A DNA stretch of 64,000 nucleotides from Escherichia phage DCP2. Position numbers and translations under genes: made by a program. Shown piece after piece: positions 51,050-51,734 of the stretch. A model generated the notes under the pieces. The model was not told the DNA's origin, did no database searches, and saw only the letters and a program-made list of their open reading frames with translations. The number at the start of each line of letters is the position of its first letter. The stretch's first letter is position 1. Location: sequence record OR780565.1. One strand, 5' to 3'.

Positions 51050-51279
51050 TGTCTGAACAAACTATTGAACAAAAACTGTCTGCTGAAATCGTAACTCTGA
51101 AATCTCGTATTCTTGATACGCAGGACCAAGCGGCTCGTCTGATGGAAGAATCCAAAATTCTGCAAGGAACTTTGGCTGAAATTGCTCATGCAGTAGGTAT
51201 CACTGGCGATACTATTAAAGTTGAAGAAATCGTTGAAGCTGTCAAGAATCTTACTGCTGAATCTGCAGATGAAGAATGA
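51049..51279 (+). CDS. 57A: gp57A tail-fibre assembly chaperone
   Basis: 76-aa coiled-coil protein directly after gene 1, as in T4. Confidence 0.85.
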
Positions 51280-51734
51280 TGGAATTTAAAGACTTTTCAA
51301 CGGGTCTTTATGTAGCAGCTAAGTTTTCAGAATTAACACTTGACGCGCTGGAAGAACTCCAGCGCTCTTTACGTGTTCCTAATCCAGTTCCTAGAGAAAA
51401 AATTCATTCGACCATATGTTATTCGAGAGTAAATGTTCCATATGTTCCATCGAGTGGAAGTTTTGAAGTAGCTTCTTCTGGACATTTAGAAGTGTGGAAA
51501 ACACAAGATGGATCGACTCTTGTACTTGTGCTAGATTCTGAATATCTGCGCTGTCGACACATGTATGCGCGGGCACTAGGTGCTACACACGATTTTGATG
51601 ATTACACACCGCATATAACATTGTCTTATAATGTTGGGCCCTTATCATTTAGCGGTGATGTACAAATTCCGGTTGTACTTGACCGTGAATACAAAGAGCC
51701 TCTTAAACTCGATTGGGCAGATGATTTAAAATAA
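51276..51734 (+). CDS. 57B: gp57B / Acb1-type 2H phosphoesterase (anti-CBASS nuclease)
   Basis: 152 aa, same as T4 57B; two HxT motifs (HSTI, HITL) typical of 2H phosphoesterases; ATGA overlap with 57A. Confidence 0.8.

Follow-up and report, generated by a model that had tools for sequence, protein, structure and literature searches.

Gene 57B of Escherichia phage DCP2 as acb1, the anti-CBASS 2H phosphodiesterase gene of T4-like phages

Introduction

Does the small gene that follows the tail-fibre chaperone gene 57A in Escherichia phage DCP2 encode Acb1, the enzyme by which phage T4 degrades cyclic oligonucleotide immune signals, and is it expressed together with its neighbour? The initial annotation of this locus had proposed both, from a pair of HxT motifs in the predicted protein and from the overlap of the two reading frames. 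We examined the locus within a stretch of 64,000 nucleotides from sequence record OR780565.1, hereafter the window. Our analysis leaves very little doubt that 57B is the acb1 gene of a T4-like Tequatrovirus, whose product destroys CBASS signals and which is probably co-transcribed and translationally coupled with 57A. Three kinds of evidence enter this reading: sequence identity, the conservation of motifs and residues, and the gene layout were computed here; the substrates, the chemistry and the anti-CBASS phenotype are taken from the literature on a protein of identical sequence; and what we infer is that, in this phage, 57B is co-transcribed and translationally coupled with 57A. The gene is thus one already known, acb1, and nothing substantive was found against this assignment. 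Its value is practical, and it advances no open question.

Gene 57B and its genomic setting

The window belongs to a Tequatrovirus that is distinct from T4 itself. The region of about 1.8 kb around 57B shares 99.9% identity with Yersinia phage vB_YepM_ZN18 (ZN18), and the surrounding 24 kb share about 97% identity with their best match. The genes gp3, gene 1, 57A, 57B and an internal-protein gene follow one another in this order, all on the plus strand. The order gene 1, 57A, 57B is common to the window, T4 and ZN18, and 57B is the last gene of this run. The first, gene 1 (50324–51049, +), encodes a deoxynucleotide monophosphate kinase of 241 aa (Pfam PF21448 DNMK, E=6.9e-107), an annotation on which ZN18 and T4 agree; the second, 57A (51049–51279, +), encodes the tail-fibre assembly chaperone of 76 aa, against 80 aa in T4 (Pfam PF17594 GP57, E=2.7e-50). 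By translated search, 57A and 57B were also found side by side in distantly related phages of Vibrio and Acinetobacter.

Gene 57B (51276–51734, +) is an intact open reading frame running from ATG to TAA and encoding 152 aa. The TGA stop codon of 57A (51277–51279) lies over its ATG (51276–51278), forming an ATGA overlap of 4 nt, just as had been described from the sequence. An alternative in-frame ATG at 51279–51281 would form a TGATG overlap and give a product of 151 aa, and the original T4 record (X03016) annotates 57B from this second ATG, with 151 aa. Both 51276 and 51279 are compatible with the sequence as the initiation codon. Compared with T4, the 3′ end of 57A carries a 12-nt in-frame deletion just before the stop codon, which makes the gene four codons shorter. 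The deletion (junction at 51266–51267) has a copy of AGATGAAG on either side and directly precedes the start codon of acb1; ZN18 shares it.

Identity of the 57B product

The predicted protein is 100% identical to T4 57B over 152 aa, both by direct alignment and by translated search. The latter matched 1,471 of 50,697 phage records, 445 of them at 99% identity or more, and its match to T4 record X03016 was 100% over all 152 residues of a coding sequence annotated there as putative 57B protein. This settles the comparison with T4 Acb1 that had been suggested as a check on the assignment: the catalytic histidine pair is retained. For the T4 gene, in turn, activity-guided fractionation had led to its identification as Acb1 (Hobbs et al. 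2022, PMC9117128), in agreement with the statement of the initial annotation that T4 57B is the founding member. The cleavage experiment proposed at the same time is already published for the same protein sequence (T4 57B; PMC9117128).

At the nucleotide level, 57B differs from the T4 gene at 10 positions, and all 10 differences are synonymous, a pattern that would be expected under purifying selection. This bears on whether the gene might be a decaying or inactive copy of acb1, as in phage Bas43, the acb1 of which has a nonsense mutation. Mutations that inactivate acb1, both natural and selected, do occur in related Tevenvirinae, where they allow escape from type I and type II Panoptes (PMC13577387). 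However, the protein considered here has the sequence of the active T4 enzyme and lacks none of its catalytic or binding residues, and because the reading frame is intact and differs from T4 solely by synonymous changes, we rejected a pseudogene as a scarcely credible reading of this locus.

Profile and structure searches agree with the assignment to Acb1. The protein matched the Pfam family PF23474 (Acb1) at 202.7 bits, against a curated gathering score of 27 bits for this family, with E=2.7e-60 and over profile positions 1–144 of 144. The best match among solved structures was Acb1 of Erwinia phage FBB1 (7T26/7T27; E=4.2e-62, 68% identity), and a weaker one was 9Q2G, named 'Anti-CBASS protein Acb1' (E=0.004), in which both HxT motifs were aligned. 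An AlphaFold2 model computed from the single sequence with no alignment was too uncertain to be of use (mean pLDDT 37.9, pTM 0.30). The 2H phosphoesterase fold is instead predicted by homology, from the crystal structure 7T26 at 68% identity and from the 100% identity to T4 Acb1.

LigT is a member of the 2H superfamily, and a rival reading is that the protein is an RNA ligase or RNA-repair enzyme of this class, a LigT-like 2′-5′ RNA ligase or a 2′,3′-cyclic phosphodiesterase acting on RNA ends rather than on immune signals. 'RNA ligase' is indeed the RefSeq label of the orthologue in ZN18 and in many other phages, and the protein matched phrog_755 ('RNA ligase') at E=5.3e-68. Against this, no Pfam family besides Acb1 was matched at E≤0.1, with no LigT or 2′,5′-RNA-ligase match among them, and an NCBIfam scan of the protein gave nothing at E≤1, so that among the profiles the name comes only by way of phrog_755. 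Moreover, the identical T4 protein degrades CBASS signals according to both biochemical and genetic evidence (PMC9117128; HIDEN-SEQ preprint), and the pocket seen in the crystal structure accommodates cyclic di- and trinucleotides only (PMC9117128). The literature consulted gave no sign of RNA ligation or of RNA 2′,3′-cyclic phosphodiesterase activity. An activity on RNA ends is therefore very improbable, and we rejected it, the label being without specific support; it looks like a legacy name given at the level of the fold. Many database records, including RefSeq entries, read 'RNA ligase' or 'hypothetical protein' and could be corrected to Acb1.

Catalytic motifs and ligand-binding residues

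Exactly two Hx[ST] motifs occur in the protein, HSTI at residues 44–47 and HITL at residues 113–116, as had been noted from the translation of 152 aa. The first (H44-S-T46-I; 51405–51416, +) is aligned with HTTI of FBB1 Acb1 and the second (H113-I-T115-L; 51612–51623, +) with HITL, so that both histidines, whose correspondence to the Acb1 catalytic residues was the decisive point to be checked, fall on H44 and H113 of the FBB1 structure alignment. The pair of motifs taken alone is weak and only modestly unusual evidence: two or more HxT motifs arose in 2.3% of composition-preserving shuffles of the protein, two or more Hx[ST] motifs in 16%, and of the 31 six-frame open reading frames of 100–200 aa in the window, only one contains two or more HxT motifs. 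The identification is secure because of the homology evidence rather than the motif pair.

Crystal structures of FBB1 Acb1 display a 2H phosphoesterase fold in which the scissile phosphate lies over an HxT/HxT tetrad (H44, T46, H113 and T115); the bases are stacked by Y12, W74, F107 and W147, the adenine N6 is read by E141, and residues 145–152 form a C-terminal lid over the ligand (PMC9117128). The tetrad is present in the window protein and aligned with both FBB1 Acb1 and T4 Acb1, and Y12, W74, F107, E141 and W147 are all found at their published numbers, giving nine of the nine named residues. The C-terminus is the same as that of T4 through residue 152, which covers the lid region.

Promoters and expression

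Several annotated T4 promoters are conserved around the run of genes. A middle-promoter-like element upstream of gene 1 (50273–50298, +), consisting of a MotA-box-like AATGCTTCA (50273–50281) and the −10 sequence TATAAT (50293–50298), corresponds by alignment to PM1 of X03016, with 97% identity across the annotated −35 and −10 regions. Inside gene 1, the late-promoter consensus TATAAATA (50686–50693, +) is matched exactly and aligned with the −10 region of PL1 in X03016; late transcripts of 57A and 57B could start from this site. Just 3′ of 57B, an early-promoter-like site (51748–51776, +; TTTACA, a 17-nt spacing and TACTAT, with an upstream TG) was detected by promoter scan and corresponds by alignment to PE2 of X03016, both the −35 and the −10 hexamer being kept relative to T4. 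It marks where the next transcription unit, that of the internal-protein gene, begins. A generic sigma-70 scan gave 13 promoter-like sites, compared with 10.6 ± 3.0 in shuffled sequence, and hence no enrichment; because the scan does not rise above the shuffles, the promoter calls rest on the conserved annotated T4 sites. No terminator-like site was found in a scan of 49600–52400.

With PM1, PL1 and PE2 in place and a terminator-like site absent from that interval, the most economical reading is that 57A and 57B are transcribed together from middle and late promoters. Of what had been proposed for the two genes, the overlap is thus plain in the sequence, and co-transcription is a reasonable inference from promoter positions and the lack of a terminator-like site. 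It fits the published expression of T4 57B, which is predominantly middle/late.

A further, unlikely idea is that the tight 57A–57B linkage, a 4-nt overlap conserved as far as straboviruses of Vibrio and Acinetobacter, is more than shared gene order: translational coupling may link the production of Acb1 to the middle/late period, in which structural proteins build up and CBASS becomes active. If this were true, expression of the tail-fibre chaperone would set the dosage of Acb1, and the 12 nt missing from the 3′ end of 57A might alter the coupling to Acb1 in this phage.

Proposed mechanism and consequences for the phage

Published work provides the substrates and the chemistry. Acb1 cleaves 3′3′-cGAMP, cUA, cAAA and cAAG and does not cleave cA4; the reaction is metal-independent, proceeds in two steps through a cyclic phosphate intermediate and cuts 3′ of adenosine, and the catalytically dead control of the T4 enzyme is H44A/H113A (PMC9117128). 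Transposon insertions in T4 57B/acb1 were tolerated on E. coli K-12 and depleted on a CBASS-expressing host (HIDEN-SEQ preprint).

On this basis, the 57B product would be a small metal-independent 2H phosphodiesterase, which is predicted to bind the cyclic di- and trinucleotide messengers made by the CD-NTases of host CBASS (3′3′-cGAMP, cUA, cAAA and cAAG, but not cGG or cA4). Binding would strain the ring, whereupon the 2′-OH of adenosine would attack the adjacent 3′-5′ phosphodiester over H44, T46, H113 and T115, and the signal would be linearised by way of a 2′,3′-cyclic phosphate intermediate, for example to GpAp. Because the signal would be linearised, the CBASS effector would never be activated, and abortive infection would be averted. 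The gene is probably carried on middle and late transcripts shared with 57A, and its translation would be coupled to that of 57A through the ATGA overlap.

Since the phage carries an intact wild-type Acb1, it should resist CBASS systems that use adenine-containing cyclic di- or trinucleotides. On the other hand, Panoptes guard systems, which sense the depletion of cyclic nucleotides, restrict Acb1-carrying Tevenvirinae, which escape by inactivation of acb1 (PMC13577387), and the phage should be sensitive to these systems. The two PCR primers published for amplifying acb1 and its surroundings from phage Bas35 (PMC13577387) match the window exactly at 50937–50960 (+) and 52132–52153 (−) and could serve for the same assay here.

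Features flanking acb1

The gene downstream of acb1 (51811–52044, +; 51799–52044 in the list of open reading frames) encodes an internal protein and is not T4 ipI. The product matched phrog_8111 'internal virion protein' (E=1.2e-52) and resembles T4 IpI only in the N-terminal MKT(Y/F)(Q/K)EF stretch, the capsid-targeting sequence, with 7 of 14 positions identical. The arrangement suggests that one allele has replaced another at the variable Ip locus. In T4, IpI acts against restriction, and with a different internal protein in its place, the phage may therefore carry different injected anti-defence cargo. Two early-promoter-like sites (51748–51790 and 52046–52085; TTTAC...GTGATACTATTACCCTATC) flank the internal-protein gene and share a near-identical segment that takes in the −10 hexamer and the nucleotides directly following. 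The two sites correspond to PE2 and PE1 of T4, and X03016 annotates both as potential stem-loops too.

Two further segments set the window apart from ZN18. Between gene 2, encoding the DNA end protector, and gene 3, an insertion of 668 nt (48967–49634; open reading frame 48963–49637, +) encodes a product of about 220 aa whose match to HNH is weak (E=0.003), probably a free-standing homing endonuclease. At 53081–53698, a segment of 618 nt takes the place of 64 nt of the tRNA-Gln of ZN18; its open reading frame (53063–53695, +) encodes a 210-aa HNH-like endonuclease with a weak match to Pfam HNH (E=0.005). No tRNA-Gln was detected in the whole window, in which the tRNA cluster begins with tRNA-Leu at 53702, whereas in T4 and ZN18 tRNA-Gln stands directly before tRNA-Leu. 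A match was obtained in 520 related phage records, and in 63 of them it extends over 80% or more of the HNH stretch, which is consistent with the same arrangement.

Comparison with known systems

The closest known system is T4 Acb1 (57B, NP_049750.1), with which the phage shares the 152-aa sequence, gene 1 and 57A upstream, and the promoter positions; it differs from T4 in the 10 synonymous nucleotide changes, in a 57A that is shorter by four codons, and in a downstream internal-protein gene that is a different allele from ipI. Acb1 of FBB1 (PDB 7T26, apo; 7T27, with 3′3′-cGAMP) is 68% identical over 141 aa and serves as the structural template for the mechanism; it shares with the window protein the HxT/HxT tetrad and the equivalents of E141 and W147, and differs by a one-residue indel near residue 80 and at position 74, where the FBB1 chain has F and the window protein W. 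A distant Acb1 homologue of 165 aa (PDB 9Q2G and 9Q2Y) aligns at both HxT motifs (HVT/HST and HLT/HIT) over residues 8–119, at a marginal similarity (E=0.004 and 0.026, respectively). LigT-type 2H phosphoesterases resemble Acb1 in their pair of H-x-T/S motifs and in belonging to the 2H class of folds; the window protein has no detectable profile match to these families, whose substrate is RNA ends, in contrast to the cyclic oligonucleotide of Acb1.

Two other phage proteins can be compared with Acb1. Apyc1, an anti-Pycsar phosphodiesterase, follows the same strategy, the enzymatic destruction by the phage of an immune signal made of cyclic nucleotides, but it differs in its unrelated metallo-beta-lactamase fold, its dependence on Zn, its cyclic mononucleotide substrates and its 5′-NMP product (PMC9117128). 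Acb2 (T4 vs.4) likewise counters CBASS in this group of phages and is expressed predominantly in the middle/late period, and it triggers Panoptes too (PMC13577387); it is a sponge for cyclic oligonucleotides that sequesters the signals without cleavage (PMC10312549), whereas Acb1 cleaves them.
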